Positions 39 to 62,924 of a stretch of DNA of 64,000 bases are shown here, piece after piece. Position 1 is the first letter of the stretch, and each line of letters starts with the position of its first letter. Origin of the DNA: Patescibacteria group bacterium (GTDB lineage: Bacteria > Patescibacteriota > Patescibacteriia > JAHIZJ01); the NCBI GenBank assembly GCA_028714495.1, contig JAQTMH010000001.1, positions 245,036 to 309,035 of the forward strand. The letters are read 5' to 3'. The notes below the pieces were generated by a model, which searched no databases, was not told the DNA's origin, and saw only the letters and a program-made list of their open reading frames with translations. The position numbers and the translations under genes were made by a program.

Positions 39-848
39 TTATTGGCTCAGAAGTCTATCAATAATTTGCCGAAATGTGTCTTCCGGAATCACGCCGGGGA
101 TGACGTAGCCGTTGATAACAAAGGTGGGCGTCCCAGTTACGCCAATGGCTAAACCAGCCTCGACGTCTTCTTCAATGTCAGCGGCGTATTTGTCCGATTC
201 AAGGCATTTTTTGAATCGGTCCGTGTCCAGTCCGGACTGCAGGGCGTAGTATTCCAAATCAACCGCTGCTAGTTTAGCTTGATTTTGGAACAGCCGGTCG
301 TGAAATTCCCAAAATTTGTCCTGCTCATTGGCGCAAGCCGCCGCTTCAGCCGCCCTCTCGGCGTCAGGATGAATATCCGTACCTGGATAATCCCGATAGA
401 CAAAATAAATCCGGTCGCCATATTCACTCATCATTTTCCTCACTGTGGGAAAGGCTTCGCCGGAGAACGGGCATTGAAAATCAACAAACTCGACAATCTC
501 CACTTTTGCTTTGGTCGAACCAAAACCCGGATCATCGGCCGTTAGCAGTTTGTTCATATCAACAATCGTGACCTGTTCAGTCGTATCCTGGGCGCGCTGG
601 CCGAGAACGCTTAGGGCATACCAGGAAACACTGACGATAAATAAAACAATTAAAACGCCAAAAATTATCAGGGAGATGCCCCACCAGGTGCGCCACCAAC
701 GGCGTTGAGGTAAGGGTTGAGGCGCCGGTATTTTTGTCTTATTTGTAATTGGCAAGTTAGCCATATCTTTATCATAACCCGAATTCAAAAATAGTAAAAG
801 TTTTCCGAACCAAAAAACCGTCTCTCTTAAACTCGAGACGGTTTTCAA
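39..848 (-). CDS. DsbA-like thiol:disulfide oxidoreductase (thioredoxin fold), membrane-anchored; true start probably the internal Met (MANLPIT..., ~764)
   Basis: Translation contains CPFS (CxxC-type) motif in 'FVDFQCPFSGEAF' and a C-terminal 'GTPTFVINGY' DsbA-like cis-Pro region. An N-terminal hydrophobic helix precedes the domain. A hairpin terminator-like palindrome lies downstream at 1-40. Confidence 0.7.
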   Translation of the reverse strand: MKTVSSLRETVFWFGKLLLFLNSGYDKDMANLPITNKTKIPAPQPLPQRRWWRTWWGISLIIFGVLIVLFIVSVSWYALSVLGQRAQDTTEQVTIVDMNKLLTADDPGFGSTKAKVEIVEFVDFQCPFSGEAFPTVRKMMSEYGDRIYFVYRDYPGTDIHPDAERAAEAAACANEQDKFWEFHDRLFQNQAKLAAVDLEYYALQSGLDTDRFKKCLESDKYAADIEEDVEAGLAIGVTGTPTFVINGYVIPGVIPEDTFRQIIDRLLSQ

Positions 849-1115
849 ATATCCCCTCTCTGGGCCGGCAAAGGCACACGGGGTTATACCAACTGCGGGA
901 CCCGAAACGCCTGAGGAGAGAGCAACAAGCGCTCAAATCGCTGCAATCGGATCCGTAGACACTTTGCCGGCTTAGAGAAAGGACCTTTTCTGAATCAACC
1001 AGTATAATACTAATAAATTCGGAAAAGGTCCCCTGTACCGGAAGCGCAAAGCGCGACTGGTACAGGGGGTTATGGCTTCTCCTCAAAAGCCATCAGACTT
1101 GACGAACCAGCCTCA

Positions 1116-1745
1116 TCAGCACGCGACCCAGGCAACACCTGAATCGCCTTGTTCACGTTTCGTTCTGACCAGAAAGTTCTTGATCGCTTGGGCCTGCTTC
1201 AGCGAAGCTTGGTTAACGGCTACCACCTTCAGGCAATAGCCAAACGACTCGTGGGGTATAATCTGGCTGGTTACTTCGATGTACCAGCCACAGCCCCAGA
1301 TGCGGAAATTCCGCGGATCAGCCAGCGACAGCCTAATGCTGACACAGCTATCACTCAAACTCACGGTTTCGGACGCATCAGCCGTCAGCTCATCCAATGT
1401 CTGAAACGCAACCTGATCAGCTAGAGGATCTTTCGTCGGTACACGGCCCTGGGTCAGAAACTCAGCGGTGGCCTGAAGCGAGTAGCGCTCTCCAAAGAGC
1501 ATCGTTACATCGCCGCCACGTGTGGGCGCGATGTAGGCCCGCCTGCTGTAGCTGGTCGCCGGCAAACCAAGTTGTCTCGCCTGCACATCAAAGAGCTGGT
1601 TTAGCAACTCGGTCGCCTCGCTGGTGTCCATTTCGGTCTGATACACGACCTGGATCTGGGTCGTCTCTGGCTCGCCAGAGCAACCGAAGATCAGCGAAAA
1701 GGCTAGAGCCAACACGACGCCGCCAAACAACCTCATTATCTTCAT
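1116..1745 (-). CDS. hypothetical lipoprotein
   Basis: N-terminus MKIMRLFGGVVLALAFSLIFGC has a signal peptide plus lipobox (IFGC). No recognisable domain. Confidence 0.5.
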   Translation of the reverse strand: MKIMRLFGGVVLALAFSLIFGCSGEPETTQIQVVYQTEMDTSEATELLNQLFDVQARQLGLPATSYSRRAYIAPTRGGDVTMLFGERYSLQATAEFLTQGRVPTKDPLADQVAFQTLDELTADASETVSLSDSCVSIRLSLADPRNFRIWGCGWYIEVTSQIIPHESFGYCLKVVAVNQASLKQAQAIKNFLVRTKREQGDSGVAWVAC

Positions 1746-1919
1746 CCAGAACCTCCTTGTCCACTGAGAAACGTTCCCGAGCTCTCCACATCTTGGAAAG
1801 CCCTAACCTTCATATTCAAAATCGGGTTATGAATGAGCTTTTTTCCCTTCTGAATCTACGAAGCTTTTCTTCCTAGACTCGGAAAGGTGAAGGTGTTTTA
1901 GCTAAAGCTAGGTACACCC

Positions 1920-2951
1920 TCAAGACCTGTTCAATGGAAAGTCAAGAGCTGAGAAGACCTCTCGCCACCGGGCAAGAAACGCCTCCCATTTGTCCAACGG
2001 CACCTGGACCCTTGTTCTCAACCGACCGCTCACACCATCCGGAAGATGGACGCGGAGATCAATCTTGCCCCACCAGTCCCTCGGCAATTCGACATAGACT
2101 TGCTCGCCCATGTGACCGATGCCAATGACGCAGAGCAAGACGTTTCCGTGACGGCGCAGAACCTCATATCTCCAGGTGGGGAGAGAAACCTTGATGCCCG
2201 AATGGGCGGCCGGCCGAAGGTCAGAGAGCACCACCCGACCTGGCAGTTCTATGGCTTCATCAGCCAGCTGATAAGCCGCCAGTTTGGCCACGTAACATGC
2301 GGCTGAGACCTCGTATTTCAACTGATGGATCGTATCGCTGGCCTGGCAACCGCTGGCTACCCAGTCAGCAATGGTCTGGTAGACCCTCTGTTTCTCCCGC
2401 AGATGTCCTTCGGGGTCCATACTGAAATACGGTATTGTGTTGAGGCTTTCAACCAGAAGTCTGCCTACCCGACTCAGCCTAGATATTCCGTTGCTGGATC
2501 TCTCGCTGATGTCGGCATCATCCTCCAGACCCAGATACCAGGCACCGCAAGCCTTGAGAAAACCCAGGAAGCCGTCGTTGTCGGCGTGAAAAAGCACCAC
2601 GCTGACACCAGACTTCCTCCATTCATCACGGGTAATCAGATGGGCACACGAAGGCGCCGCGATTCGGTCAACCAGGCGGATTGCTTCGCCGAATCTCTGA
2701 CGCAATCCTTCGGCATTCTCCTTTTCAACTTGAACCTGGTTCAAATGATGGTCAGCGAAACACGCTAGCCGATGACCAGCCGCGATCAGTTGATCAATCA
2801 ACGCGCACATTTCAGTTGACGGTGCCAAGTCAATGCAGGCGAACCGGCTGCTGGGAGGCAGAGAGGCGACTAACTCTAGGCGATCCTTTTCCGTGATATA
2901 CGGCTGGATCGCGATGCCACGCACGCCGTTCAAATTCACCACCAGAACCAT
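1920..2951 (-). CDS. hypothetical protein (343 aa)
   Basis: Long ORF in the same orientation as its neighbours. Contains 'FADHH' and 'HADNDG' strings but in an order unlike DHH phosphoesterases. Function unknown. Confidence 0.45.
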   Translation of the reverse strand: MVLVVNLNGVRGIAIQPYITEKDRLELVASLPPSSRFACIDLAPSTEMCALIDQLIAAGHRLACFADHHLNQVQVEKENAEGLRQRFGEAIRLVDRIAAPSCAHLITRDEWRKSGVSVVLFHADNDGFLGFLKACGAWYLGLEDDADISERSSNGISRLSRVGRLLVESLNTIPYFSMDPEGHLREKQRVYQTIADWVASGCQASDTIHQLKYEVSAACYVAKLAAYQLADEAIELPGRVVLSDLRPAAHSGIKVSLPTWRYEVLRRHGNVLLCVIGIGHMGEQVYVELPRDWWGKIDLRVHLPDGVSGRLRTRVQVPLDKWEAFLARWREVFSALDFPLNRS

Positions 2952-3108
2952 GCGATCCCTCCGTTTCTTCGGCTGATGCCTCTATGGTTTTTGACAATGA
3001 GCTATCTTCTTCTGAACCCGCGAATCGTTATGATTCCCAGATTCAGGGAAAGGGGCGAACACCAGACGATATTCGCCCAATGAACAGACCTTCGTATGGC
3101 CAGTGTTG

Positions 3109-3576
3109 CTAGTAGTTCGACAGCGTCAAGACGACGCCGTCACCAGCCGGGCCTGATGTGGCCGTCTCGCCATACGCCTCAATCGTGTAGACGCCGGCTA
3201 CAAGCTGGTAGCCGATGTTGCCCTGGCTGTAGCCGAGCGGCCCAATCGTCATCGGCGCCTTGGTGAATGGGTTGTTCGGCAACACACCGCCGGTCCATTG
3301 CGACACGTCATTGAGCTGTTCCAATGTCGGATAGACGTCATCGTTCCGGACCGCAAAGTCCTCGACCACGAGCTGCGTCGAGTGGCAGTTCGCCTTGACA
3401 CTGCCTTCCTTGGCGCGGTTCACCATCGCGATGTAGTCCGGGATGGCGATCGCCGCCAGAATCCCGATGATGAGGACCACAATCATCAGCCCGATCAGAC
3501 TGAAACCATGGGAATGAGAACTCTTCATGTCCAGCTCCTCCTCTTTGAAACCGACTCTTTCTTCCGCCACTCTCAT
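3109..3576 (-). CDS. type IV pilin / pseudopilin (prepilin-type N-terminal methylation domain); likely start at internal Met MKSSHSHG (~3528)
   Basis: Translation has 'GFSLIGLMIVVLIIGILAAIAIP', the class III prepilin leader/cleavage motif G|F(T/S)LIxLMIV. Position +5 is Gly instead of the usual Glu. Confidence 0.7.
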   Translation of the reverse strand: MRVAEERVGFKEEELDMKSSHSHGFSLIGLMIVVLIIGILAAIAIPDYIAMVNRAKEGSVKANCHSTQLVVEDFAVRNDDVYPTLEQLNDVSQWTGGVLPNNPFTKAPMTIGPLGYSQGNIGYQLVAGVYTIEAYGETATSGPAGDGVVLTLSNY

Positions 3577-3771
3577 CTATCAGCCAACAGCCAACTCCGC
3601 AGGCCAATGCCTGACAGATAAATCTGGCTTGTCAATCTTAACGCGTGACCCGATGTTTGATGCAAAGAGCAATTCTTCCTCTGAGCGCTCAATCGTTTAT
3701 TGCGCAATCAAGAACTCGGAGAAAGGGGGTATTGCCAGTCAAACCAGCAAAATACCCCACGACCAGGCGAA

Positions 3772-4050
3772 TCACTGCCCTTGGTTAGGCAATTGAAGGC
3801 GGGAGATCAGGTGGTTCCTGTTGATCAACCAGTAGAAGATCATGGGTATTGTCAGGCAGAGCGACACCCCCGCATAAAATAGGAATGGTGGTTTACCTGA
3901 CAGTAAGTATGACAGCATGCCGAGTGTTGCCACAATGCCAGCGCCGACAACCTCATTCCAGATGGGCTTGGGCCAGCGCCACGACGCGTAGAGCCAGCCA
4001 GCCACCGGAGCTGCCAGCAACGCAATGAGATGGTACAGAGTCATAGACAC
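3772..4050 (-). CDS. small integral membrane protein (92 aa), hypothetical
   Basis: Three hydrophobic segments. Same strand as the neighbouring genes. Confidence 0.35.
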   Translation of the reverse strand: MSMTLYHLIALLAAPVAGWLYASWRWPKPIWNEVVGAGIVATLGMLSYLLSGKPPFLFYAGVSLCLTIPMIFYWLINRNHLISRLQLPNQGQ

Positions 4051-4266
4051 CTCCTGGATCGAGCCTGTTGCGAAAAGAAACTGTCAAAAGAGCTATCCTT
4101 CTCTGAAGTTATTATGGTACCTCTCCATAAAGTCGAGGAATAATAAATTCAGAGAAAGAGGGCAGAACCAGTTAAGCTTGCGCTTTTCCAGTTCTGCCCA
4201 AGGGGCAGTACCGGAACCCTAGAACCATTACGGTTCAGGGGACTGGTACTGCCCTGTGTTGTGAAG

Positions 4267-4899
4267 CTAGGACTCGGCGATGAAGTGGGCGTGGCTGCAG
4301 CGCTGGCATTGGGCCTTGGCGAGTGCCGCGTCTACTGCCGGACGATACCGAATGAGCGACTCGGGGAAAGCCTCGAGTGAGCCCTGGTAGAGCGTCTTGG
4401 CCACGATTCTGGCCAGGCGCTCCGCCTCGTCCTTCACCACCTCGCGCGACTGCACCCGAACCCGCGACCCCGTAGAACTGAGCCTGAGCTCGATCACGAC
4501 GATTCCGCCGGGCACCGAGAAGAGCGCGTGCGGATCATCCTGCTCCCGGCCCACGAAGAATGGCCGAAGCGCCTTGCCGGAGAAACCGCAGATGATCGTA
4601 GCCTGGCCGATCTCGCCGAGACCGCCGCCCTCCTCCGCAATCTGGATGAGCGGCGGCTGTCCGTTGACGCAGGACGGCATCTGGAAGACGCCATCCTGCC
4701 CCTCGACCTGCGGCAGGTCCACGACGACACCGGTGCGAGTCTCGTGAACCTCCACATCCTCCGCCCCCTGGTCCCAGAGCTGCGCGAGAATGGCTTCCCG
4801 ATTGCCCTGGGCGAGTTTCACGATGAGCTTCATCATGGCGATACCCCTTTCTGCTCGAACACCTAAACCCTTGGCAACAATTCCTTGTTGCCAGTTCAC
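4267..4899 (-). CDS. hypothetical protein (probable start at MKLIVKLAQGN...)
   Basis: GC-rich ORF of 210 aa. No recognisable motif. Confidence 0.4.
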   Translation of the reverse strand: MNWQQGIVAKGLGVRAERGIAMMKLIVKLAQGNREAILAQLWDQGAEDVEVHETRTGVVVDLPQVEGQDGVFQMPSCVNGQPPLIQIAEEGGGLGEIGQATIICGFSGKALRPFFVGREQDDPHALFSVPGGIVVIELRLSSTGSRVRVQSREVVKDEAERLARIVAKTLYQGSLEAFPESLIRYRPAVDAALAKAQCQRCSHAHFIAES

Positions 4900-5109
4900 A
4901 CCTGTCTGGGGCTGCTAGCTTCACTAATTGTAAAGAACCAACCCCCACACCAAATTCTTCAGAATAATTATTGAAAAATTTGGTGTGGGGGAACAAACTA
5001 TTCTACCTCAACTCTCGAAAAAAATCAAGGGCTGGAGTAGAACGGGGAAGAAGTGATTGGCTGCTTCCCCGTCAATGTGTCTCACTGTACGAGTAGGTCA
5101 TTTCACCTC

Positions 5110-5406
5110 CTAGGCCACCAGCAACAAAGGGTCGCCGGAAAAGGCCTGGTTGATGAGTGCGCGGATAGCGTGCTCATGGTGAATTCGACAAACATCCAGG
5201 TGAAGTATTTCTGCCACCTGGGGCACAAGATTCTCGATCGGGTATCCCCGATACCAGACCCACCCGTCAAGGTAGGCCTTGAGGACCGTTGCCGCTTCAA
5301 GCTGCGACCTGATGCGCATATCAAGCCCCCCTTCTGTGGAAGAGCCTTCCTCTGAACCTTGGACCATGATTGGTTCAAAGCTCGGAAGAAGTGGGGGCTC
5401 ACACAC
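5110..5406 (-). CDS. small hypothetical protein (~98 aa)
   Basis: ORF fills a 530-bp gap between flanking genes on the same strand. No motif recognised. Confidence 0.3.
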   Translation of the reverse strand: MCEPPLLPSFEPIMVQGSEEGSSTEGGLDMRIRSQLEAATVLKAYLDGWVWYRGYPIENLVPQVAEILHLDVCRIHHEHAIRALINQAFSGDPLLLVA

Positions 5407-5427
5407 AGTGTAAGCCCCCTCAAAAGA

Positions 5428-5913
5428 TCACTGTCGGTACCAGAGCTTGACAGTCAACCCTGGACAGATCATGTTCAGCTTCCGCACAGAGTCCCGGAAG
5501 TTCATGGCCGCCTCCCTTGACGGCCGCGGCTTGAAGCCAATGACCGCGTAGACTTCCTGATCAGTCATCTTTGGACCGGCTATCTTGTTGATATCCGAGC
5601 CCCAGGCGTCGTGAACCCAGACTACCAGACCCATGAACTTGATCTGGAAGGTAGGGTCAACCTCGAGCTTCTTCATGTCCACGCTCGGGTCAGTGCCGAG
5701 CCGAACAATGTGTACGACTTCAAAGAAGTAATCGTACAGCTCATACTTGCATCCTTCGAAGACAAAGGACGCACAAGCCTGTGTCCAGTCATCGACTGGC
5801 ACATTGATGCTGTCCAGCTGTGACGCTGTCAGCTCGATAGTGACGGTTTCCGCTCCTGCGTACGCCTGGCAAAATGCCAAGGTCGCGACCACCAAGATCA
5901 CCAAACTCTTCAT
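5428..5913 (-). CDS. secreted hypothetical protein (161 aa)
   Basis: N-terminal signal peptide MKSLVILVVATLAFCQAYAGA. Confidence 0.5.
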   Translation of the reverse strand: MKSLVILVVATLAFCQAYAGAETVTIELTASQLDSINVPVDDWTQACASFVFEGCKYELYDYFFEVVHIVRLGTDPSVDMKKLEVDPTFQIKFMGLVVWVHDAWGSDINKIAGPKMTDQEVYAVIGFKPRPSREAAMNFRDSVRKLNMICPGLTVKLWYRQ

Positions 5914-6169
5914 TTTAGCCTTCCTCCGTTTGGTACGGGCTGGTCATCGTTGGCCACCAGCAAGCCAGTGTCAAAGAGCATTCCTTCCTCTGAACCCTCA
6001 ATCCGCTATTCCCGATTAATATCAGGAGTCTTGGGATTAAGAGTTCGGAAGAAGTTCCCAGCACCGGAAATCCCGAAGGATAACTAGTGCTGGGAGCCCC
6101 GAACCGGAACCCTGTAACGAAGCGCTTCGCGCCTGGTTCAGGGGACTGGTTCGTGGAAGAAAGAGCAGA

Positions 6170-6556
6170 TCACAGATGATAGGCAACCGCACCCTGCTGT
6201 GGAATGGCCCACCAGCAGTCAACCTCGAATCGGTGACCATCATAGTTCCAGGCAGGCACCCAGACCTTGTATCGCGAGTAAACCTTCCCTGAATCAGTCG
6301 TCAGGTGATGGCACGCCCGGATGATGATCCCCCGGGCTTCAGCATCTCGGCTGAAGGCGCTAGGAAGGATGTAATCATTCTTGTCCTTTGGGGTCGCCGC
6401 GTCGGCATTGAACACCCAGACCGTGTCGCCGACGGCGAATTCAGTCTTGGCGAAGTTGATGTAGCCGGGCTCACTCGGTTGAGCCAGTTGAAGAACATCA
6501 GCCGCCGAGGAAGAAACCACGGCCATCGCGACCAGAAGAACCACTAGCCACTTCAT
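6170..6556 (-). CDS. small secreted protein, paralog family (EPG...VGDxVWV motif)
   Basis: Start MKWLVVLLVAMAVVSSSAA has an RBS GGAGGG 6 nt upstream (reverse complement of 6557-6566). Shares 'EPGY...FAVGDTVWVFN' with the 7414..7827 product. Confidence 0.55.
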   Translation of the reverse strand: MKWLVVLLVAMAVVSSSAADVLQLAQPSEPGYINFAKTEFAVGDTVWVFNADAATPKDKNDYILPSAFSRDAEARGIIIRACHHLTTDSGKVYSRYKVWVPAWNYDGHRFEVDCWWAIPQQGAVAYHL

Positions 6557-6671
6557 GATACCCTCCTGACGCATAGCGTCTGTCTTGAACCAGGCTGATT
6601 GGATTGACTTCAATCCATACCAACCCAGTTACTAACTTGTAAAGAGCTCCGCTTGAACCTGTCTTTAGTGG

Positions 6672-6830
6672 GGAACCCCGAACCAATTGCGCTAAAGCGC
6701 TTCCGGTTCAGGGCAAGCCCCGAACCGGAGTCCCGTCGAATGACAGAACGACTGGTTTGGGGTAAAGACAGGCTCGAGTGAAGCCCTGACCCCATACCGA
6801 AGCTTTAGCGCCTGGTACGGGGTCAGGGGG
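6672..6830 (+). repeat. compound nested-hairpin element (three tandem units), family 1
   Basis: Units of outer stem CCCCGAACC/GGTT(C/T)GGGG or CCCTGACCCCATACCG/CTGGTACGGGGTCAGGG around central palindromes GCGCTAAAGCGC and AAGCTTTAGCGC. Related copies at 976-1070, 4095-4258, 6054-6160 and 22300-22440. Confidence 0.6.
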
Positions 6831-7010
6831 TGATTTCTTGGCAGCTACGAGAGTCGAACTCGTCATCCTTCCTTGGAAGGAGCCCGAACACCCGGACGGG
6901 CTGACCACCGGGCCACTTTACGTCGGGAAGCCGCCTGATTTATTTCGGCAAGGAGATATATCCTCTCCCGTAACCCGAAATCTTGTTTCGGGTGGTGTTA
7001 AAAGGACGTT

Positions 7011-7085
7011 TCTCTTCCGAACCCGCGAACCTAGATGATTTCCAGACTCGGAAAAGTGGAGGAAGGGCAGGACTTCCTCCGAAGA
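7011..7085 (+). repeat. repeat family 2 (TTC(T/C)GAACCCGCGAACC...GGAGGAAGGGCAGGACTTCCTCC)
   Basis: Second copy at 9100..9172. Partial copy at 3007..3050. 3' part forms hairpin GGAGGAA-gggcaggac-TTCCTCC. Confidence 0.7.
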
Positions 7086-7153
7086 TGTTCAAAATGTGCG
7101 TTGGAGCTCTCGCGCCTGCCTTGTTCCGAAGAACAACGCGAGAGGATGCGGGT

Positions 7154-7456
7154 TTAGAACCAGAAGGTGATGCACCACACGAAGCTGGCAAGCATAGCCA
7201 CCAATCCCGTGCTGGTCTGGAGCCTCTGATCAGGGGCTTCGTTCAAAGACCATGTCCAGAGCCGAGTCGCCAGCGCGACACCCCCGGCAGACCCGAGCGT
7301 GCAGAACCCGAGCAGAGCATTCCTGAACCACATCATGATTCCCTCCTCGCAGCACATTGCTGCATCAGTTTCCATAAACCCCTTGGCGGACTCGCTATGA
7401 GCCGCCGCGACAACTACCAATACAACGCAAGGAAGTAGCGAGAGTAGGCTGCCCAC
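7154..7456 (-). CDS. possible small membrane protein (100 aa)
   Basis: Hydrophobic N- and C-terminal segments. Weak call. Confidence 0.25.
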   Translation of the reverse strand: MGSLLSLLPCVVLVVVAAAHSESAKGFMETDAAMCCEEGIMMWFRNALLGFCTLGSAGGVALATRLWTWSLNEAPDQRLQTSTGLVAMLASFVWCITFWF

Positions 7457-7827
7457 CTTTGAGGCAGGTTATACGCCTCATAGAGGTTGCCAAACTCTGC
7501 TTCCTCCTCGAAGTCCTCTCCCGACAGGGAGACAGCAACCCTGTAGAACCAGTAATCACCATACTGGAAGATCGCCACAACCCTTGCCAACGCGTACTCC
7601 TGCATGCAGGAATCGTCCGCGCCAGGGTACAACCCGCCGTAGGCGCATTCAGTTTCACCTACGTTCACCCACACCGAGTCACCGACCTCCAGCGGCTTCG
7701 AGTTGAAGACGCCGTAGGGGTAAAAGCCGGGCTCTACGTTCTGACCAAACGCCAACGGCGCCAGGACAGCAAAGAGTGAGGCAACGGCCAGACAGATCAG
7801 CACCCAACAGTACGTTCGATGCTGCAT
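7414..7827 (-). CDS. small secreted protein, paralog of 6170..6556
   Basis: Start MQHRTYCWVLICLAVASLFAVLA is preceded by AAGGAGGT RBS (reverse complement of 7833-7840). Motif 'EPGFYPYGVF...EVGDSVWVNV' is shared with the 6170 gene. Confidence 0.55.
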   Translation of the reverse strand: MQHRTYCWVLICLAVASLFAVLAPLAFGQNVEPGFYPYGVFNSKPLEVGDSVWVNVGETECAYGGLYPGADDSCMQEYALARVVAIFQYGDYWFYRVAVSLSGEDFEEEAEFGNLYEAYNLPQRWAAYSRYFLALYW

Positions 7828-7979
7828 TTTGGTACCTCCTTGATGGTTCGAGACCTCTAGGAGAATGATATTATCAATGTAATGAGCCTTTCTCCTACCT
7901 GAGCGCTGCAGTACAGAAGTACTGAAACGCTCGGGTAGGACCCGATGCGCACCAGAGGTGGCACGCATCGGGATGAACG

Positions 7980-8819
7980 TTAGAATGAGTAGGAGAATGA
8001 AACTGAACACTCGGCATGCTTTTCACGCGTGTCATAGTACGCGCGAAGAAAGCACTTCGGCGCGTACTCCGCAGTTGCGCCGACAAGCCATCGCGAGCCG
8101 CGCGCATCGCCGCAGTCGTACTGGGCATAGAGACGCGCCCAAGGGCTAACCCTCACGTAGTTCTGCAGGAAGTACGGAGCGCGTCCCTCCTGCTCCGGAT
8201 CAAACCAGCTTGCGCCGATTGCCGGGTTGAAGAACCGCATGGGTTCCCAAGTCGCGATTGCCGCGTACCCGATGTTCCTCTCCCAGCATGCCTTGACGGA
8301 CGCTGGGGCTCCGGCGAGCGAATCGGTCACCGCCACGTACGCCGCCCAGTGCCGGTCGTCTTTGAAACTGACGACCGTAGTCGTGAACGAGCTAACGATG
8401 TGCGTCGCGGACACGCCGAACTGATTTGACGAGAACTTGCAGTTCGCGTCAGGGTTCCGTGTCAGACGAAGCTCCTGAGGACCAGGGAAGACGGACTGGA
8501 TTGGCAGAGCTTGCTGGCCAATGGCAACAGCAGTCCTGCCGAATTCAGTCACGAACGTCTTCATCGCATACGCCTTTGTCAGTCGCACGCTGGTGACGCC
8601 CGTGCCGTCGATTTCCGCACGGAAGAACAGGGCGTGTGCCTTGTCTTCCTGACAGAGACCCGCCCGCAGAATGCCGAGCGTGTAGGCATGATCGTTGCTC
8701 CGGTCCGGCATGGACACGGAGCCGTACACGTAGTTGCTCGCACCGGCGTTCGCAGCCAGTACCAACGCGAAGATGATCGCGAACAGCATGGCGACTTTGA
8801 ACCGACAACCGGAAATCAT
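7980..8819 (-). CDS. secreted beta-rich protein, outer-membrane-protein-like (C-terminal ...FSYSF)
   Basis: Signal peptide MISGCRFKVAMLFAIIFALVLAANAGAS. Alternating hydrophobic pattern. Terminal Phe is typical of beta-barrel OMPs. Confidence 0.5.
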   Translation of the reverse strand: MISGCRFKVAMLFAIIFALVLAANAGASNYVYGSVSMPDRSNDHAYTLGILRAGLCQEDKAHALFFRAEIDGTGVTSVRLTKAYAMKTFVTEFGRTAVAIGQQALPIQSVFPGPQELRLTRNPDANCKFSSNQFGVSATHIVSSFTTTVVSFKDDRHWAAYVAVTDSLAGAPASVKACWERNIGYAAIATWEPMRFFNPAIGASWFDPEQEGRAPYFLQNYVRVSPWARLYAQYDCGDARGSRWLVGATAEYAPKCFLRAYYDTREKHAECSVSFSYSF

Positions 8820-8885
8820 TGATCCCCCCTTGTTTCTGCCGTTTTGGTAGACCGTTAGCGCACTTCAAGGAAGCCGCCTAAATCT

Positions 8886-9031
8886 CTCCACACCGAACTG
8901 GAGGTGAGTTTGTCCATCTTTGAGCCGAAGCTCGATGGACCGGCTGAACTTAGTGAAGGCGTTGAGTTGTTCACCCGACGCGATCACCTCGTCTAGCCAC
9001 TCTCTTCTCCCCTCCATGTCGGTGCGGAGAA
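8886..9031 (+). repeat. 143-bp direct repeat, copy 1
   Basis: Near-identical (one internal mismatch) to 10311..10455. A diverged third copy lies at ~10625..10770, sharing the core TTTGAGCCGAAGCTCG. Confidence 0.85.
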
Positions 9032-9238
9032 ACGGTAGTCGTTCCCCGACTTGATCGGGGAACCTAGAAATTCTACTTAGTGTGTGTAATAAATAACTTC
9101 TCCTCTTCTGAACCCGCGAACCGAATTGATTCCCAGGTTCGGAAGATAGGAGGAAGGGCAGGACTTCCTCCAAGAACGAATGAGCATAGTAATTCTCACA
9201 CCTGCCTGCGAGCTAAGCTCGATTTGTGAGAGGCGAGA

Positions 9239-10069
9239 TCACCGAACGTAGCAGTGGTACTCCTTCCAGAGGAAATCCCTCTCCTTCTGGGTGAGCCCGA
9301 GCTCACGCCCGGCGATATTGTACTCGTTGATGGCCCAAGACAATCGCAGTATGGCCCAGCCATACTGTTCCATATCCTGAAGGGAACGGGCATAGACGAG
9401 CACGTCCCGGCAGTCCTGGACCAGCTTGGCCCTGAACTGTTCCGGACTCAGGCCATAGTCCTGGATGGTCGTCCCACTGGCGTTCACCAGGTGGACGATT
9501 TCGCGACCGACGTCCCAGGGGTCATCGAGCATGATGGTGCCCTCGCCCTGTCCGATGTCATGGCCGCGGCGGGCGGAAATCGGCTGGTCCAAGCACTGGA
9601 TCAATTCGGTCGCGATGGTACGTCCGAGCCGGTTGTGTGCGGAGTGCACTTCGCTTGCGTTGACCCCGACGTCTTCCCAGGTGACATTCCAGTCACCGAG
9701 ATTGCGCATCGCCGATCCGACTTTGCGATACTGATCGAAGCGCTGGTCGAGGACTCCGTAGGAATCCTGCGCCATCTTCACTTCCTGCTCCCAGCTCGGA
9801 GACAGGAAGCCAGTGAAGACCTGCCGCATCTGCTCGGCGTACTGCGTGCGCTGTTCGAAAGCCTGGCGAGCTTCGTTGAGGGACACCTGTGCGGCCTTCA
9901 GGTTCTCGGCCTGCTTGTTCAGCGTGGCCTCCTTGACCGCCAGCTCCTCGCTCCATGAGTTCAGGTTGGCCTTCTGGTCGCCGAGGTGATGGAACCCGAC
10001 CAGCGTGATGACCAGAAGCACCGCCCAGACGATCCCGACTGCTCCAACGATTCCGATCCGCTTCTTCAT
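9239..10069 (-). CDS. membrane-anchored coiled-coil protein, hypothetical
   Basis: Start MKKRIGIVGAVGIVWAVLLVITLVG with AGGAGG RBS. Long Q/E/A/K-rich coiled-coil segment follows. Flanked by 143-bp direct repeats. Confidence 0.5.
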   Translation of the reverse strand: MKKRIGIVGAVGIVWAVLLVITLVGFHHLGDQKANLNSWSEELAVKEATLNKQAENLKAAQVSLNEARQAFEQRTQYAEQMRQVFTGFLSPSWEQEVKMAQDSYGVLDQRFDQYRKVGSAMRNLGDWNVTWEDVGVNASEVHSAHNRLGRTIATELIQCLDQPISARRGHDIGQGEGTIMLDDPWDVGREIVHLVNASGTTIQDYGLSPEQFRAKLVQDCRDVLVYARSLQDMEQYGWAILRLSWAINEYNIAGRELGLTQKERDFLWKEYHCYVR

Positions 10070-10310
10070 GACCTTCGGTCCTCCTTTGACAGCTTGACCT
10101 GCCGTCTGACATACCCCCATGCTTCATATCCGAGACCGATCATCCCGACCTTTCGACTTCTCTCAAGATCAGGACGCTCCCGCAACCCAGCACCACGTAG
10201 GGCGCCGGGCTCTGGGAGTATTTAATTGTCAAAGTTCTGGTAGCGCTCTCATTTGCAGGAATAACCATCCTTCATCCTTCATTCTTCCTTCTGAATTCTT
10301 AATTCTAAAT

Positions 10311-10455
10311 TGGCTTCTCTCCACCGAACTGGAGGTGAGTTTGTCCATCTTTGAGCCGAAGCTCGATGGACCGGCTGAACTTAGTGAAGGCGTTGAGTTG
10401 TTCACCCGACGCGATCACCTCATCTAGCCACTCTCTTCTCCCCTCCATGTCGGTG
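10311..10455 (+). repeat. 143-bp direct repeat, copy 2
   Basis: See copy 1. The two copies flank the 9239..10069 gene. Confidence 0.85.
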
Positions 10456-11252
10456 CGGAGAACAATCCTATTGCGTATCCCGAAATCTTGTTTCGGGTTT
10501 GTTGTAAAGAACGTGGTCTCTCAATAAGCAGAATGCATTATTTCCCTGCCAGCTCGAGGCCGGTGGACTCGGCCCTTTTGCATGGTTTGTGACCGCCTCC
10601 GGTCCTCGAATTGGCAGGGAAACAATTTGTCTAAAAAGCACTGATCTGGAGGCGAGTCCAAACGCCCTTTGAGCCGAAGCTCGGGCGCTCAAACTGAATT
10701 GTGTTGAAGCCATCGAGGCATGGCCCGATGAGATCAACTCCTTCAGCCTCCTCCCTCCTCCATATCAGTGCTATTTAACGTCGTTCATGGTCCGCCTTGG
10801 GCGGACGGCAATTTAAAATGGGTGACAGTTTGCTGCTGTCAAACCCGAGAAGAGAGTTTTCGACAGAAACAAACCACCACCCATTGATTATGAATGCCGG
10901 TTTTCCAACCGCAATTTGAAGCGATTGGCTCTCTCCTCATTTATTTTATGTAATGTGCTCGCGAACTCTCCCCACAAGATTCTTGAGCATAACTGGAGAG
11001 TATAGCGTACCAAAAAAGACCTGTCAAGACCCCATGAGATGATATTGGCTAATGTAAGCCAAAATATTTTATCAATTAATTTATTTATTGGGTTTTTTAA
11101 CATATTACTACGTAGGCGAGGTTGATCAACCTCGCCTGCTTTGGAAGAGCTTATTTACTATGGAATAGTTGCGCCGGGGTGGTTCTACGCGTTTACTTAC
11201 AAAAAAAACTGTGATAAAGTGACCGCGAAAGTGTTGTTTCGCGACTTTCTTT

Positions 11253-12155: not shown

Positions 12156-12206
12156 GCGAGCCTAACTAGTCCGCCTCTGGCGGAAGGCTCGCCTCCGAGA
12201 ATACAT

Positions 12207-12279
12207 GCCGCGGTGGTGGAACCCTGCACCATGTAAGGTGCAGGGCTCCGAACCTGGCATGGTTCGAGGCTGGGTAAAA
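12207..12279 (+). repeat. tRNA-Leu 5'-end-derived hairpin element A
   Basis: Begins GCCGCGGTGGtGGAAC, which is the first 16-17 nt of the downstream tRNA-Leu. Continues into the hairpin CCCTGCACCatgtaaGGTGCAGGG and a second stem. Ends GGGTAAAA. Confidence 0.6.
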
Positions 12280-12311
12280 TTTAATAACAAATATTCTTTA
12301 GAATAGTTGGT

Positions 12312-12413
12312 GCCGCGGTGGCGGAACTGTCCCGTACCACAATGGGTACGGGACACCCAGAACTCCACGCAGTTCTGGGTGGTATCCGGCACCCAACGTG
12401 GTGCCGGGTAAAA
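12312..12413 (+). repeat. tRNA-Leu 5'-end-derived hairpin element B
   Basis: Begins GCCGCGGTGGCGGAAC, identical to the tRNA-Leu 5' end. Followed by three perfect hairpins (GTCCCGTACC/GGTACGGGAC, ACCCAGAACT/AGTTCTGGGT, CCGGCACC/GGTGCCGG). Ends GGGTAAAA. Confidence 0.6.
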
Positions 12414-12445
12414 TCACAAACTGCAAATTATTCAGCCCAACTGGA

Positions 12446-12532
12446 GCCGCGGTGGCGGAACTGGTATACGCGACGGACTTAAAATCCGTTGGAGGAAACT
12501 CCATGAGAGTTCGATTCTCTCCCGCGGCACCA
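12446..12532 (+). tRNA. tRNA-Leu (anticodon UAA), type II with long variable arm, CCA encoded
   Basis: Cloverleaf checked by hand. Acceptor GCCGCGG pairs CCGCGGC. Anticodon stem ACGGA/TCCGT with loop CTTAAAA. Variable arm GGAGgaaaCTCC. T-loop TTCGATT. 3' end ACCA. Confidence 0.85.
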
Positions 12533-12573: not shown

Positions 12574-12906
12574 ATGCATTATGTGTACTTTCTTCTTTCT
12601 CCATTTTCTAGTAAAACATACGTTGGCCGAACAAATTCTCTCGTCAGGAGAATTGCCGAACACCGAAATGGTAAATGCTGGACTACGGTTCGAATGGGAA
12701 AATTCATAGTAATTGGCTACGAGGCCTTTATGTCAAAAAGTGATTCTTTTAGACGCGAGAGGTACTTCAAAACATCAAAGGGCAGATCAACCCTACGATT
12801 AATGTTCCGAGATAGCATCGCCACGACACTTTTCCCTAACCACGCTGGGTTCGGGGTACCTAGTACCGGAACGAAGCGACTGGTGATGGGTAAAATCCCA
12901 AAATAA
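12574..12906 (+). CDS. GIY-YIG nuclease-domain protein (small, stand-alone)
   Basis: N-terminus 'HYVYFLLS...KTYVGRTNSLVRRIAEHRNG' matches the GIY...YIG...R...E...N signature. Confidence 0.55.
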   Translation: MHYVYFLLSPFSSKTYVGRTNSLVRRIAEHRNGKCWTTVRMGKFIVIGYEAFMSKSDSFRRERYFKTSKGRSTLRLMFRDSIATTLFPNHAGFGVPSTGTKRLVMGKIPK

Positions 12907-15632: not shown

Positions 15633-16004
15633 TTAGTCTTTTAATACATTTTTAGCCTGATAAATATCTTCCTGGATCTGGGCCACTAAGCGAGTCTCAT
15701 CGGGATAAGTCTGAAGCGAGCGTAACCGTTTAACTAATCGGGCTTCAAGTACCAGGCCTCTAAAATCCTCTCTCACGCCCAACACATGGATTTCAATTTT
15801 AAAATCTTTCTTTTTCTTTCGCGATGGCGCGCCGATAATCACCAAGCTGGGGTATTTTTTAGCACCCACTGCTGTCCAGGCCGCGTAAACTCCTTTGGGT
15901 ACGGGATGGAGTTTATAATAACGCCGATCGAGATTAGCGGTGGGATAACCCAGGCCCTCTCCCCGGCCCTCTCCCCGAATTACCTTGCCTTTGACAATAG
16001 ACAT
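15633..16004 (-). CDS. riboflavin kinase domain protein (RibF C-terminal-like)
   Basis: 'KGKVIRGEGRGEGLGYPTANL' and 'EIHVLGVREDFRG' are typical of a flavokinase domain. No FAD-synthetase N-domain is present. Confidence 0.6.
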   Translation of the reverse strand: MSIVKGKVIRGEGRGEGLGYPTANLDRRYYKLHPVPKGVYAAWTAVGAKKYPSLVIIGAPSRKKKKDFKIEIHVLGVREDFRGLVLEARLVKRLRSLQTYPDETRLVAQIQEDIYQAKNVLKD

Positions 16005-22178: not shown

Positions 22179-22491
22179 TCTTATCTCCTTTTAAAAAATC
22201 ACGACTTTGCGTTTTTATATCGTATCTCATTGAATCGTTTTTGTAAACCCCCGGCTAATTGACAAAAAATTTCCATTATCCTAATATAAGACCGTCGTTT
22301 GAGGAGTTGTACCGAGTGGCGTGAGGGAACTGGACCGTTATTAGCGCCACAGCAACCTATCCGCCCAGGGCGGACAAGGTGCTCTCCAGCCCCCTGCACA
22401 GGAGTCCTGCGTAAGCTTACGACTGGTACAGGGGAACGACAACTTTCTCTCTGCCTTATGACCACAATGGTCTTTGGGAGGAGGGAGTTCG

Positions 22492-36731: not shown

Positions 36732-36954
36732 AGATCTATAGTCAATTTATAATTAATAATTCAGAAGGAAGAATGTTGGTTGTCCCGTTGCGGGATTTCC
36801 TAAATTGATAATTTTTAATTCTTAATTTTGAATTTCTTACTAAAATGGACCAGTTAATAAAGAACTAGTCCTAGCTTGAGTATAGCGGAACGGTAAAATC
36901 TTGGCAAGACTAAGTAGACGAGGATGGTCATCCTCGTCTACTTTATCTATTGTT

Positions 36955-39777: not shown

Positions 39778-39946
39778 GGCTTAAGTATACTCTTCTTCAA
39801 GAAATACCGTAGGCGAGGTTGACCAACCTCGCCTATGTAGTATTTACATTACTATGTCCTAATAAACGACCTTTATCCAAAAAAATGCCCGACCGCATGG
39901 TGGGTCGGGCTCTAGTAAGAACTCTCAACAGTCTTGGATCAAGGTA

Positions 39947-42666: not shown

Positions 42667-42686
42667 AGGCGGCTTCAGCCGCCTTC
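42667..42686 (-). terminator. intrinsic terminator downstream of gdhA
   Basis: Minus strand reads AAGGCGGC-tgaa-GCCGCCTT followed by TTTTAGTTT. Confidence 0.55.
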
Positions 42687-42725
42687 CTTCATTCTTACTT
42701 CTAAATTCTGAATTCTAAATTGCCC

Positions 42726-52181: not shown

Positions 52182-52770
52182 TTTCCGCAACCCGCCTGAC
52201 AAAGCGTGGTGGAGACACGGGGAGTCACCGCCATAGGCGCCTGCCCGACGGCTGGCGGGGGTCCGCCTTATCTATAATTTTTTATTTAGTTGTGGCGGAG
52301 AACTCTCCTAATCTCTTCCATTTCCCCGTATTCGAAGTGTAAGCATCAAGGCGTGCCAAGTAAAAATTATGGTTTTTTGGTCTGTACTTGGTGGGCCTAG
52401 GCGGCCCCGGACTCGGATCCGGGGGAACCGCTGTTTCCACAATGCGAATGCGGGGTCTCGCCTGCTTACCTATGCTTGGTGGAGATGGGGGGACTCGGAC
52501 CCCCTACCTCAGTCCCGCAACCGGGTGGAACCGTGCCCCGCCGCATGGCGGGGCGACCTCCGCAACCCGCCTGCCAAAGCGTGGTGGAGACAGGGGGAGT
52601 CGAACCCCCGACCTTCGCAATGCGAATGCGACGCTCTACCAACTGAGCTATGTCCCCACCACGCGGCGGGCAGGTGCGAATGCGGCGCTCTACCAACTGA
52701 GCTAACGGCCCACCCTGGTGCGGGACGAATGCTGCGCTCTACCAGATGAGCTACATCCCCATCAAGCATA
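52182..52770 (-). repeat. array of tRNA-Ala-derived fragments (5' halves and CCA-ended 3' pieces) surrounding the intact tRNA-Ala(CGC)
   Basis: On the minus strand: GGGGATGTAGCTCATCTGGTAGAGCGCAGCATTCG...CACCA; GGGCCGTTAGCTCAGTTGGTAGAGCGCCGCATTCGCA...; the intact tRNA; then GGTAGGGGGTCCGAGTCCCCCCATCTCCACCA, ...CCGAGTCCGGGGCCGCCTAGGCCCACCA and GACTCCCCGTGTCTCCACCA. The overlapping six-frame ORFs here are artefacts. Confidence 0.6.
52582..52657 (-). tRNA. tRNA-Ala (anticodon CGC), CCA encoded
   Basis: Minus strand GGGGACAtaGCTCagttggtaGAGCgTCGCAttcgcatTGCGAaggtcGGGGGttcgactCCCCCTGTCTCCacca. G3:U70 present. Confidence 0.85.
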
Positions 52771-52824
52771 GGCGGGCAGGTCTTACCGCTGGACCATAGG
52801 CCCTAATATTAGCTAATTTTCGAT

Positions 52825-59934: not shown

Positions 59935-61461
59935 ATGTCAGTAACAACTTTGATCGTCTTGGTGGCAGCCGGTTTTGCGGTAGGCGGCTTACTTGGATTT
60001 CTGATTTACAAAATATTGATTTCCAAGCGGGCGGATTCGGCCGAAGCCAAGGCGCAGGAACTTATCAGGCAAGCTCAGAACAAACAAAAGGAAATACTCC
60101 TCTCGGCCAAGGACAAGGCGCTTAGAACCATTGAAGACGCCAAAAGAGAGGAAGGCCGCCGGCACGAGGAAGTCACTCACCTCCAGGAACGCCTGGAAAA
60201 ACGCGAGGGCATGTTCGATCAAAAGCTGATGGAACTTGAAAATCGTCAGCAGAAGCTCTATGAACGGGCTCAGCGCATCGAACACGTAAAAAAGGAAGTT
60301 GAAGGCATACGGGCTGAACAAGTCGCGCTTCTGGAAAAGGTTTCATCAATGAGCCGGGACGATGCCAAAAAATACCTCCTCGACCAAACCGAGAAACAGA
60401 TCAAGGACGATTTGGTCCAACGCATGAGAAAAATCAAGCAAGAGGGCCAGGAGGAAATTGAAAAAGAGGCGAAAAATCTTTTGAGTTTGGTTATCCAGCG
60501 CTGCGCTTCCTCCCACGCGGCTGAAACCACCACGACCACGGTGGCCCTGCCGTCAGATGAAATGAAAGGCCGGATTATCGGCCGCGAGGGTCGCAATATT
60601 CGAGTTATCGAGCAGCTGACCGGCGTTGAAATCGTGGTCGATGATACGCCGGAAGTCATCATTATTTCAGGCTTCAGCCCGATCCGCCGGCATCTGGCAA
60701 AACGGGCGCTCGAAAAGCTTATCCAGGACGGCCGGATTCATCCTTCACGCATTGAGGAGACGGTTGAAATAGCCAAAAAAGAATTAGCCAAGGATATCAA
60801 GGAAGCCGGCGAAGAAGCCGCCTATGAAGCTGGCGTAGCCGGTCTTGACCCGAAACTCGTCCAACTGCTCGGCCGGCTGAAATACCGGACCAGTTACGGC
60901 CAAAACGTTCTTAAACATTCGATTGAAGTCGGCCTCTTAGCCGGCATGCTGGCTGAAGAATTGAAAGCTAATGTCCCGGTTTGCAAAAAAGGCGGGCTAC
61001 TTCATGACATCGGCAAGGCTGTCGATCATGAAGTTCAGGGCGGCCACCCGCAAATCGGCTATGATATCATGAAAAAATTTCATCTGCCCGAAGAGGTTGC
61101 TTATTTGGCCGCCGCCCACCATGAAGACGCGCCCAAAACCCTAGAAGGCATTATTGTTAAAGTCGCCGATGCCATTTCCGGGGCCCGTTTCGGCGCCCGA
61201 AAAGACTCTTACGAGAATTATCTCCAGAGATTAAACGAGCTTGAAACTGTAGCCAATGGTTTCCCCGGCGTTGAAAAATCCTATGCCATCCAGGCCGGCC
61301 GCGAAGTCAGAATTTTCGTCAAGCCGGAGGAAATTGACGACCTCCAGGCCGAACGCCTGGCCCGAGATATCGCCAACCGGATTGAAGAAGAGCTCCGTTA
61401 TCCCGGTGAAATAAAAGTAAATCTCATCCGCGAAAAACGGGTGATCGAATATGCCCGTTAA
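59935..61461 (+). CDS. rny: ribonuclease Y
   Basis: N-terminal TM, coiled coil, KH ('GRIIGREGRNIRVIEQLTGVEIVVDD') and HD ('LLHDIGKAVDHE') domains. Confidence 0.9.
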   Translation: MSVTTLIVLVAAGFAVGGLLGFLIYKILISKRADSAEAKAQELIRQAQNKQKEILLSAKDKALRTIEDAKREEGRRHEEVTHLQERLEKREGMFDQKLMELENRQQKLYERAQRIEHVKKEVEGIRAEQVALLEKVSSMSRDDAKKYLLDQTEKQIKDDLVQRMRKIKQEGQEEIEKEAKNLLSLVIQRCASSHAAETTTTTVALPSDEMKGRIIGREGRNIRVIEQLTGVEIVVDDTPEVIIISGFSPIRRHLAKRALEKLIQDGRIHPSRIEETVEIAKKELAKDIKEAGEEAAYEAGVAGLDPKLVQLLGRLKYRTSYGQNVLKHSIEVGLLAGMLAEELKANVPVCKKGGLLHDIGKAVDHEVQGGHPQIGYDIMKKFHLPEEVAYLAAAHHEDAPKTLEGIIVKVADAISGARFGARKDSYENYLQRLNELETVANGFPGVEKSYAIQAGREVRIFVKPEEIDDLQAERLARDIANRIEEELRYPGEIKVNLIREKRVIEYAR

Positions 61462-62875: not shown

Positions 62876-62924
62876 TTAGAAACCACAATGCATCTTGAAT
62901 AAGTAAGCTTGTGTTTGATATAGA

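Follow-up and report, generated by a model that had tools for sequence, protein, structure and literature searches.

The hairpin-forming modules described here separate the genes of a small array in a genome of the Patescibacteria, or candidate phyla radiation (CPR). The window, i.e. the whole stretch of DNA that was analysed, comprises 64 kb of a contig of a metagenome-assembled genome (MAG), and the array occupies an island of ~10 kb (~850-10,990) in which every plausible gene lies on the minus strand. The GC content of the island is 0.50-0.59, that of the rest of the window mostly 0.41-0.54. Housekeeping genes flank the island, on the left the gene for DsbA and on the right those for a NUDIX protein, a SpoU methylase, and tRNA-Leu. 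The co-oriented open reading frames (ORFs) of the array are mostly small and without Pfam matches; in a scan of ten island proteins the sole match above the cutoff was a pilin N-methylation motif, and one of the ten gave two weak sub-threshold matches (TarH, DUF2564). The modules are composed of one or more GC-rich hairpins, designated B, and a second hairpin, designated A. The original prediction, which was made from the sequence alone, had reported part of this family as compound nested-hairpin elements present in both the island and the core. The family is real, as its folds and the excess of its sequence pattern lie far beyond chance, but its members had been delimited incorrectly, and the placement of the element after nearly every gene of a hypervariable array resembling those of integrons had gone unrecognized.

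Structure and distribution of the modules

Read in coding orientation, 10 of the 13 gene gaps of the island have a common layout (Table 1). The stop codon is followed after 0-13 nt by one to three B hairpins, hairpin A begins 0-2 nt further on, and a spacer of 23-143 nt then extends to the next ribosome-binding site (RBS) and start codon. Nine of these ten gaps contain a significant match to the covariance models of hairpin A, and the tenth contains a weak one (7892-7941; 16.3 bits with model R2, E 0.016, filters off). In two more gaps, the only A-like hairpins are a divergent one (5000-5043, E 1.2) and a compound one (a repeat with its arms within 6643-6787). Compared to dinucleotide shuffles, the folds of the compound elements have z-scores between -3.2 and -9.2. 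Because both the genes and the favoured folding strand are minus, the order in the RNA is B followed by A, the reverse of the order originally proposed, in which an AT-rich hairpin was followed by a GC stem. Three of the copies listed at the time can be resolved into parts of the module: 976-1070 corresponds to A1 and B1, 4095-4258 to A5, B5b, and B5a, and 6054-6160 to B7b and B7a, the associated hairpin A lying outside at 5983-6055. The 'three tandem units' at 6672-6830 are indeed three B palindromes, but two of them are located in the loop of an A-like repeat. The list of five was incomplete, lacking the six hairpins A2, A3, A4, A6, A8, and A9 as well as the weaker A-like sequences at 7892-7941 and 5000-5043 and the B copy at 12859-12890 outside the island. 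Among the cores described as perfectly palindromic, GAAGCGCTTC and CGTAAGCTTACG are so, whereas AAGCGCAAAGCGCG is a GCGC-AAA-GCGC hairpin.

The 5' arm of hairpin A is rich in pyrimidines (CUUYUUCCGAR) and its 3' arm in purines (YUCAGARGAAG); the centre of 12-50 nt is variable in sequence and base-paired with itself. The copies of the hairpin are 45-73 nt long, or ~145 nt with a nested B. A simple regular expression retrieved the nine island copies and one chance-like match at 62994. Two covariance models, a check that had been suggested for the family, were built from the nine island copies (R1) and from 20 copies in four genomes (R2), and they recover the island copies as well as copies in other CPR arrays. 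Beyond the nine island copies, R1 and R2 detected nothing at E<0.05 in the window, the other 53 kb included; a search of 1-24000 with filters off added weak matches at 4943-4990, 7892-7941, and 5000-5043, all in island gene gaps, and at 12219-12248 and 22442-22485. In the alignment of 20 copies from four genomes, 89.3% of the cells are paired and 14 of the 17 pairs show compensatory changes, which was reached by none of 500 shuffles, and pairing falls to at most 57% when the partner is slid. The C.A mismatch of hairpin A is not invariant (C.A in 10, U-A in 5, and C-G in 3 of the 20 copies; our own count in alignment A5) and is therefore not treated as a recognition element. Hairpins A3, A8, and A9 are 79-86% identical, loops included, despite unrelated flanks.

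The two strands of hairpin A are not equivalent. The sense strand folds better in 17 of the 20 copies, with summed energies of -451 kcal/mol (sense) and -350 kcal/mol (antisense), and it contains 57 G.U pairs compared to 25 in the antisense strand. Every significant copy in the four main genomes is oriented in sense to the flanking genes, and so are two weak matches in the unrelated CPR contig L151. This asymmetry is the main reason for assigning hairpin A to the level of the sense transcript, in support of the RNA-level function that had been proposed for the family, while B may act in RNA or DNA.

The B palindromes are GC-rich and 35-60 nt in length. In one subfamily the core, CCCNNN-ACCAGTC-(inner hairpin)-TTCCGGT-NNNGGG, hardly varies; its A.C mismatch is invariant, and the outer stems covary. 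In the B alignment, 89.6% of the cells are paired, and a covariation score of 0.44, compared to 0.14 in shuffles, was reached by none of 500 shuffles, so that the claim of a conserved structure with covarying sequence holds for both hairpins. The pattern ACCRG...CYGGT plus outer stem was found 18 times, whereas 100 shuffles gave 1.17 matches on average and 5 at most, an excess of ~15-fold. Within the 64 kb there are eight B copies in the island and two outside, all of them outside ORFs or at ORF 3' ends. B5a and B7a have an exact 16-mer in common. The copies at 4160-4199 and 6672-6716 are inverted with respect to their neighbours, the matches to R3, the covariance model of B, being on opposite strands; B5b and B5a form an inverted pair resembling a bacterial interspersed mosaic element (BIME). 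Both outside copies were part of the training alignment of R3. B shows no strand bias (-699.5 versus -695.3 kcal/mol). Six other gaps contain GC hairpins without the B core, namely those listed with A2, A3, A4, A6, A8, and A9 in Table 1. In an R3 search of the compared loci, the core was seen only in the window and in the related contig L149. The hairpins match no Rfam family: a gathering-score scan of the whole window with Rfam 15 returned tRNAs only, an E-value scan of 800-11200 gave only spurious microRNA and small-RNA matches (E at least 0.13), and E-value scans of the related contigs L010, L011, and L014 yielded no family match for the hairpins.

Table 1 Hairpin modules and associated features of the window (R2, covariance model of hairpin A; R3, covariance model of B; I, inverted repeat)
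Feature	Position	Strand	Evidence and remarks
Hairpin A1	983-1029	minus	44.9 bits (R2); 3' of g1 and B1; orthologous to L149 15936-15985
B1, CCCCTGT-ACCAGTC-GCGCTTTGCGC-TTCCGGT-ACAGGGG	1030-1068	minus	46.7 bits (R3); z -9.2 with A1; L149 orthologue 15879-15930
Hairpin A2	1843-1889	minus	Preceded by GC hairpin 1892-1919, which begins right at the g2 stop
Hairpin A3	3005-3053	minus	Preceded by GC hairpin 3053-3078; loop ~79% identical to A8 and A9 loops
Hairpin A4	3674-3726	minus	Preceded by GC hairpin 3726-3758
Hairpin A5	4096-4159	minus	Fold z -5.6
B5b (inverted) and B5a (sense, nested inner ACC..GGT hairpin)	4160-4199 and 4203-4254	minus	42.3 and 44.5 bits (R3), opposite strands; z -8.4
Hairpin A6	5345-5392	minus	Preceded by GC hairpin 5393-5419
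Hairpin A7 (longest, distal stem)	5983-6055	minus	Model match and fold
B7b and B7a	6055-6096 and 6097-6156	minus	B7a is a B-type hairpin nested in a B-type hairpin; R3; z -7.7
B8a, then A-like inverted repeat	6784-6828; arms 6763-6787/6643-6667	minus	I6, R3 matches, fold; loop of the repeat contains B8b (6718-6762, sense) and B8c (6672-6716, inverted)
tRNA-like pseudogene (acceptor stem and T arm)	6839-6935	minus, sense to genes	ARAGORN with relaxed thresholds only (tRNA-Trp-like)
g9 3' module	7010-7144	minus	H8 7104-7144; GC hairpin GGAGGAAG..CTTCCTCC 7058-7080; A8 7010-7058
Divergent B+A-type module after g11	7892-7972	minus	GC hairpin 7941-7972; A-like 7892-7941 (CCGAG/CUCAGG arms); I8, I20
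g13 3' module	9101-9234	minus	H9 ~9195-9234; GC hairpin 9149-9171; A9 9101-9149
Sigma-70-type promoter, TTGACA-17 nt-TATACT	10999-11027	minus	11 of 12 consensus positions; heads leader and array
B copy	12859-12890	plus	Core ACCAGTC..TTCCGGT exact on minus strand; 30.8 bits (R3, training member)
B-family hairpin	22389-22434	plus	39.3 bits (R3, training member); exact 13-mer in common with B1

Related arrays and gene-content junctions

The same module is present in three other CPR arrays, one of which is the orthologous NUDIX-DsbA locus. The product of g2 (1920-2951, minus), which is 100% identical to 'MAG: hypothetical protein PHI73_01170 [Patescibacteria group bacterium]', has homologues with 40-48% identity in the CPR metagenome contigs L010, L011/L012, and L014, where the neighbouring genes are entirely different. 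The gene gaps of L010 and L011 contain a GC hairpin directly followed by a hairpin with pyrimidine and purine arms, which R1 and R2 detect on the sense strand. The orthologous locus is located on L149, a contig of another Patescibacteria MAG, which encodes a homologue of g13 (9239-10120), the first gene of the array, with 68% identity. The order in L149 is SpoU, NUDIX, leader, g13 homologue, seven small ORFs without Pfam matches, DsbA, and hydrogenase genes, and the GC content of the array (0.58-0.64) exceeds that of its flanks (0.48-0.54). Only two array genes are shared with the window, g13 (79% nucleotide identity) and a homologue of g1 (25% identical protein). L149 contains four copies of hairpin A, each in sense and 3' of a stop codon, and a B copy with the exact ACCAGTC/TTCCGGT core 3' of the g1 homologue.

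The 3' untranslated region (UTR) of g1, composed of a small hairpin (H0), B1, and A1, has 74% column identity to its L149 orthologue and is thus better conserved than the protein that it follows. The module 3' of the g13 homologue of L149 is 85% identical to positions 7039-7144 of the window, which follow g9, and is less similar to the module of g13 itself. Compared to L149, the GC stems of the modules after g13 and g9 both show compensatory changes, while the loop UCCUGCC is constant. Two weaker B+A modules were found in L151. These comparisons cover 64 kb of genome and five contig lineages; two DsbA-homologue loci without arrays served as negative controls, the DsbA family being too widespread for finding orthologous loci.

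Differences in gene content coincide with the modules. Beyond g13, the window and L149 are homologous only as far as the point where hairpin A begins. In L149, an additional unit composed of a 5'UTR, a 95-aa ORF, a GC hairpin, and a hairpin A lies between two A copies, and since the two genomes are homologous beyond the last A copy, exactly one extra unit is present in L149. L010 and L011 are collinear over five genes and then differ by gene units which are bounded by the repeated module of GC hairpin and AT-rich hairpin. Together with the likeness of A3, A8, and A9, these breaks identify the modules as points at which units are gained, lost, and exchanged, for which the presence of the same ~100-nt module after every gene provides the site.

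Two further observations concern the relatives. In g2 and its homologues the motifs DHH and HxDxD are invariant, which suggests a phosphoesterase of the DHH superfamily; the Pfam DHH model matches none of them. Upstream of the related arrays, L010 (112-1379) and L011 (5181-7221) contain a ~78% identical, highly structured non-coding region of ~0.8-2 kb that is bounded by copies of hairpin A, has no Rfam match, and may be a large non-coding RNA.

Transcription signals, leader, and other repeats

The leader and the array are headed by a single strong promoter (Table 1), and a homologous promoter is read at ~9140-9170 of L149. Within the island, consensus promoters (7 versus 4.7 expected) and canonical terminators (9 versus 9.8 expected) are not enriched, and none of the B hairpins was called as a terminator, whereas both types of signal are enriched in 20 kb of core sequence (39 promoters versus 17.6 and 38 terminators versus 25.6 expected). 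The GC stems are followed by the tails CUUUUCC, CUUCUUCC, or CUUUCUC, which fall short of a canonical U-tract (at least five U in 8 nt). Several candidate signals were rejected. A leader peptide starting from the conserved ATG/TTG after hairpin A is contradicted by TAG at this position in some copies, promoters in the hairpin A loops by inconsistent -10 and -35 elements, and a function of GCTCTTTGACA as -35 box by the absence of a -10 element at the right spacing.

In both genomes, the leader (~870 nt) that separates the promoter from the first array gene contains two tandem copies of a ~135-nt structured RNA domain (D1) with conserved GACAUGGAGGGGAG...GAGCUUCGGCUCAAAG...CUCGCCUCCAG (minus strand of the window, 10316-10462 and 10639-10771; L149, 9494-9621 and 9708-9842). 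The third copy of the window, 98% identical, is located inside the array (8885-9031, minus). The domain has 45 predicted pairs, 15 of which show compensatory changes, and no Rfam match, and it is a candidate for a new cis-regulatory, possibly riboswitch-like RNA. Independent Logan assemblies of two samples (window ~8920, the start of L001, L155, and L156) both break inside the 147-nt D1 repeat, which thus limits short-read assembly of the locus. The leader also carries an AT-rich repeat, CCTTCATTCTT(C/A)CTTCT(G/A)AATTCT..AATTCTAAATTG, at 10261-10312; its second copy (42671-42722) is located downstream of the glutamate dehydrogenase gene. This repeat includes a sequence resembling a half-site of the 3' arm of hairpin A.

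The copies outside the island are of the B type, which means that the B palindrome, and not the compound element, recurs there. The copy at 12859-12890 has degenerate, non-complementary outer stems and is situated in the 3' end of a GIY-YIG-like ORF. The second copy had been taken as an element at 22300-22440 that ties the island to the core of the contig. This is weakly true insofar as the B palindrome recurs, but the sequence lacks an upstream hairpin A and would belong to the expression platform of a putative riboswitch. The B-family hairpin is the 3' hairpin of a weak match to the S-adenosylmethionine riboswitch SAM-I (RF00162) at 22304-22425 (plus; 22.6 bits, below the gathering score of 44.4; E 0.01 in a 401-nt search). 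The alignment is full-length, with the conserved blocks GAGGGA, CUGG, GCAACC, and AAGGUGC visible. The following hairpin with pyrimidine and purine arms (22442-22485) sequesters the true RBS and is not significant as hairpin A (E 0.56). The divergent SAM-I-like region 22304-22485 precedes a 70-aa ORF and the gene for a 2253-aa surface protein and apparently includes a translational platform, in which the anti-Shine-Dalgarno (anti-SD) sequence CUUUCUCUCU pairs with GGGAGGAGGGAG.

Related hairpins, CCCTGCACC...GGTGCAGGG, adjoin tRNA-derived repeats at 12221 and 62940. Such repeats occur at 12200-12532, 52560-52780, and 62801-63053, and the hairpins are inside two of the three. The 5' part of the tRNA-Leu gene is repeated twice upstream of it, tRNA-Ala is adjoined by three tandem copies resembling a tRNA-Ala half, and the 3' end of tRNA-Arg is repeated ~180 nt downstream. 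Separate from B is a repeat resembling repetitive extragenic palindromes (REP), GTAGGCGAGGTTGATCAACCTCGCCT, which has a GTAG head and three intergenic copies in the core (11111-11137, 36913-36939, and 39808-39834).

The island itself contains a tRNA-like pseudogene at which neither ARAGORN with default settings nor Rfam gave a call; it could be an integration scar or a processing signal for RNase P or RNase Z. Searches for att sites revealed no direct repeat of this element or of the island ends, the island DNA had no match in phage and plasmid collections, and no relatives of g2 were present among viral contigs. The g11 product (7980-8819, minus, 279 aa) has a signal peptide, and its C-terminus, ...FSYSF, resembles that of outer-membrane beta-barrel proteins, which one would not expect in CPR.

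Possible functions of the modules

The interpretation that we favour, at not quite an even chance, is that the modules are lineage-specific, two-part, transcribed intercistronic 3'-end modules which serve in processing, stability, or partial termination and are at the same time recombination junctions. The module most likely acts in the mRNA. A long sense RNA, initiated at the single promoter at the head, would cover the whole array, and the stacked helices of B and A would serve as leaky intercistronic punctuation, either as a leaky terminator or as a processing site for an endonuclease of the RNase III or RNase Y type. After cleavage, B would remain as a block against 3'-exonucleases on the upstream cistron and A as a structured 5' end on the downstream cistron, so that stability and stoichiometry of each gene unit would be set by the module; recombination between module copies is assumed to account for the exchange of units. 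This interpretation is consistent with the position of the modules, the covarying structure and sense-strand bias of hairpin A and its restriction to the array, the scarcity of canonical signals inside the island, the promoter at the array head, the RNase Y encoded by the host (59935-61461), the conservation of the modules, and the junctions. It resembles the RNase III hairpins of the T7 early and late operons, the malE-malF REP, and papBA, where a family of hairpins of similar sequence, with stems of ~20 bp and internal mismatches, lies between the cistrons of a long transcript and where, as proposed for the modules, separate mRNAs result whose ends are protected by hairpins. The differences are the CPR host, the bipartite layout, and the gene-content breakpoints at the sites, and the cleavage proposed here is putative.

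Several points weigh against this interpretation. Operon transcription, cleavage, and termination are all predicted from sequence. The tract after the GC stems has just 3-4 U per 8 nt and fails a canonical terminator scan. The lack of strand bias and the two orientations of B are as compatible with an element that is selfish or acts in DNA as with one that acts in RNA, and the near-identical loops of A3, A8, and A9 indicate copying or conversion of the element itself, which a role in RNA does not require. The covariation counts are based on copies which were partly picked for folding and many of which are paralogous. The family is known from five contig lineages only. A scan of 596 Gb of genomes with the pattern CTTCTTCCGAR-N20-50-YTCRGNGGAAG, which is too degenerate, revealed no convincing member among the matches listed, these being scattered singles in unrelated phyla with E<0.01 for two of the first 100; none of the 14 loci obtained with a stricter pattern in Joint Genome Institute (JGI) metagenomes was convincing either. 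A viral pattern scan gave seven single matches, which are at chance level by covariance model.

It is unlikely that the modules are selfish repeats of the REP/BIME type or similar to miniature inverted-repeat transposable elements (MITEs), mobilised by a REP-associated tyrosine transposase (RAYT), an IS200-type Y1 transposase, or gene conversion, and that any function in the array is confined to incidental effects of hairpins. REP/BIME elements stabilise upstream mRNA and attenuate transcription. As in Enterobacteria and Pseudomonas, the B palindromes are short, GC-rich, extragenic, and imperfect, they closely follow stop codons in regions that are presumably co-transcribed, the copies are oriented by a fixed mismatch, and they occur as singles, inverted pairs, and clusters with other short motifs (4160-4254, 6672-6828) or nested (6097-6156). 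Considering also the few copies outside the island, the original comparison of B with REP/BIME elements is fair, and the hairpins beside the tRNA-derived repeats and the A3, A8, and A9 loops shared between unrelated flanks likewise suit a mobile repeat. The modules differ from REP/BIME elements in that B lacks a 5' GTAG/GTGG head, the flanks are not conserved in the B alignment, no Y1 transposase or RAYT gene was found among the 40 window ORFs scanned, and most copies are concentrated in one variable array instead of being dispersed. B is also coupled to a strictly sense hairpin A that has no counterpart in BIMEs. This hairpin adjoins a GC hairpin and follows an ORF in every case, and it was never found in the 53-kb core. 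The conservation of the g1 module beyond that of its protein and the compensatory changes that keep the stems across genomes also argue against a purely selfish element. The arms of hairpin A could be counted as terminal inverted repeats, but A3, A8, and A9 are not flanked by target-site duplications and all A copies are in sense, which speaks against the MITE that had been considered. The suggestion of a free-standing small RNA is not borne out, as the elements occupy 3'UTR or intercistronic positions without a promoter or terminator of their own.

The exchange of units raises the question of cassettes as found in integrons, which we regard as improbable. According to this explanation, an ORF with its B+A would be mobile, the part of attC would be played by hairpin A, with or without B, as a non-canonical site folded in single-stranded DNA, the recombinase would be encoded elsewhere, and the head promoter would correspond to Pc. 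The array is similar to integron arrays and to CALINs (clusters of attC sites lacking integron-integrases) in several respects: co-oriented small ORFs without internal promoters are headed by a single strong promoter, each is followed by an imperfect palindrome of 45-145 nt with conserved ends and a variable, self-pairing centre, the A copies are strictly oriented with the ORFs, and the GC content lies above that of the flanks in both genomes. Moreover, L149 has almost entirely different genes at the same chromosomal site, A copies mark the limits of blocks and of inserted or deleted units, and g2 homologues stand among different neighbours in other B+A arrays. With 45-73 nt, or ~145 nt with nested B, hairpin A also agrees with attC sites (~57-141 nt, paired variable centre). 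However, the expression RYYYAAC-N35-130-GTTRRRY was found 0 times on both strands of 800-11000 (1.3 expected from shuffles), the arms of A have the form TCYGAR/YTCRGA with the AAC/GTT triplet in only five of nine copies, and the module consists of two or more adjacent hairpins instead of one R/L-box hairpin. A scan of 40 window ORFs revealed no tyrosine or serine recombinase (Phage_integrase) and no IntI, nor is a recombinase among the precomputed Pfam matches of L149, L010, and L011. Integrons recombine the bottom strand, whereas here the coding strand folds better. Exact-protein look-ups for g2, g7, and g11 retrieved identical proteins only in the same context, in two samples, and homologous recombination between repeats explains the junctions equally well. 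A new Patescibacteria gene-cassette system, in which a promoter and structured leader precede promoterless ORFs and B+A sites unrelated to attC in sequence double as mRNA punctuation, appears to us just as improbable.

It is also conceivable, at a very low probability, that the hairpins are ordinary, independent terminators and RBS-sequestering hairpins which resemble a family owing to composition or shared constraints (GC stem, U/C tract, SD-like purine tract). The succession of a GC stem and a C/U-rich tract resembles a terminator, the hairpin after the SAM riboswitch match has the same pyrimidine and purine arms and sequesters a true RBS, and L151 contains weak B+A-like modules in an unrelated context. 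Tandem hairpins in succession after a stop codon without a long U-tract also recall the 'V-shaped' non-canonical terminators of WebGeSTer, a descriptive class without shared sequence, from which the modules differ by specific motifs conserved across copies and genomes. This explanation is already disfavoured: the shared sequence, i.e. ACCAGTC/TTCCGGT with the fixed A.C, the arms of hairpin A, the 16-mer of B5a and B7a, and the identity among A3, A8, and A9, exceeds what the constraints demand, the core of the same contig uses canonical U-tract terminators, and the covariance models separate the island copies from all else by >20 bits. The GC stem with at least five U in 8 nt that characterises rho-independent terminators is not found in the B hairpins.

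We would place the modules among the transcribed intergenic palindromes, as a new form of these, and consider two other explanations alongside. CPR/Patescibacteria represent a large share of bacterial diversity, and their RNA-level control and turnover of accessory genes are almost unstudied. The module is defined in sequence by two covariance models and identifies arrays that are hypervariable, occupy fixed chromosomal sites, and encode secreted, pilin-like, and unknown proteins. Its conservation exceeds that of the protein upstream, and it coincides with junctions of gene gain and loss. If it is a signal for RNA processing or stability, it would provide a handle for annotating the operons of uncultured lineages; as a recombination site, it would represent a new system of cassette capture distinct from integrons. 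In both cases, metagenomes can be searched for arrays of this kind with the models.

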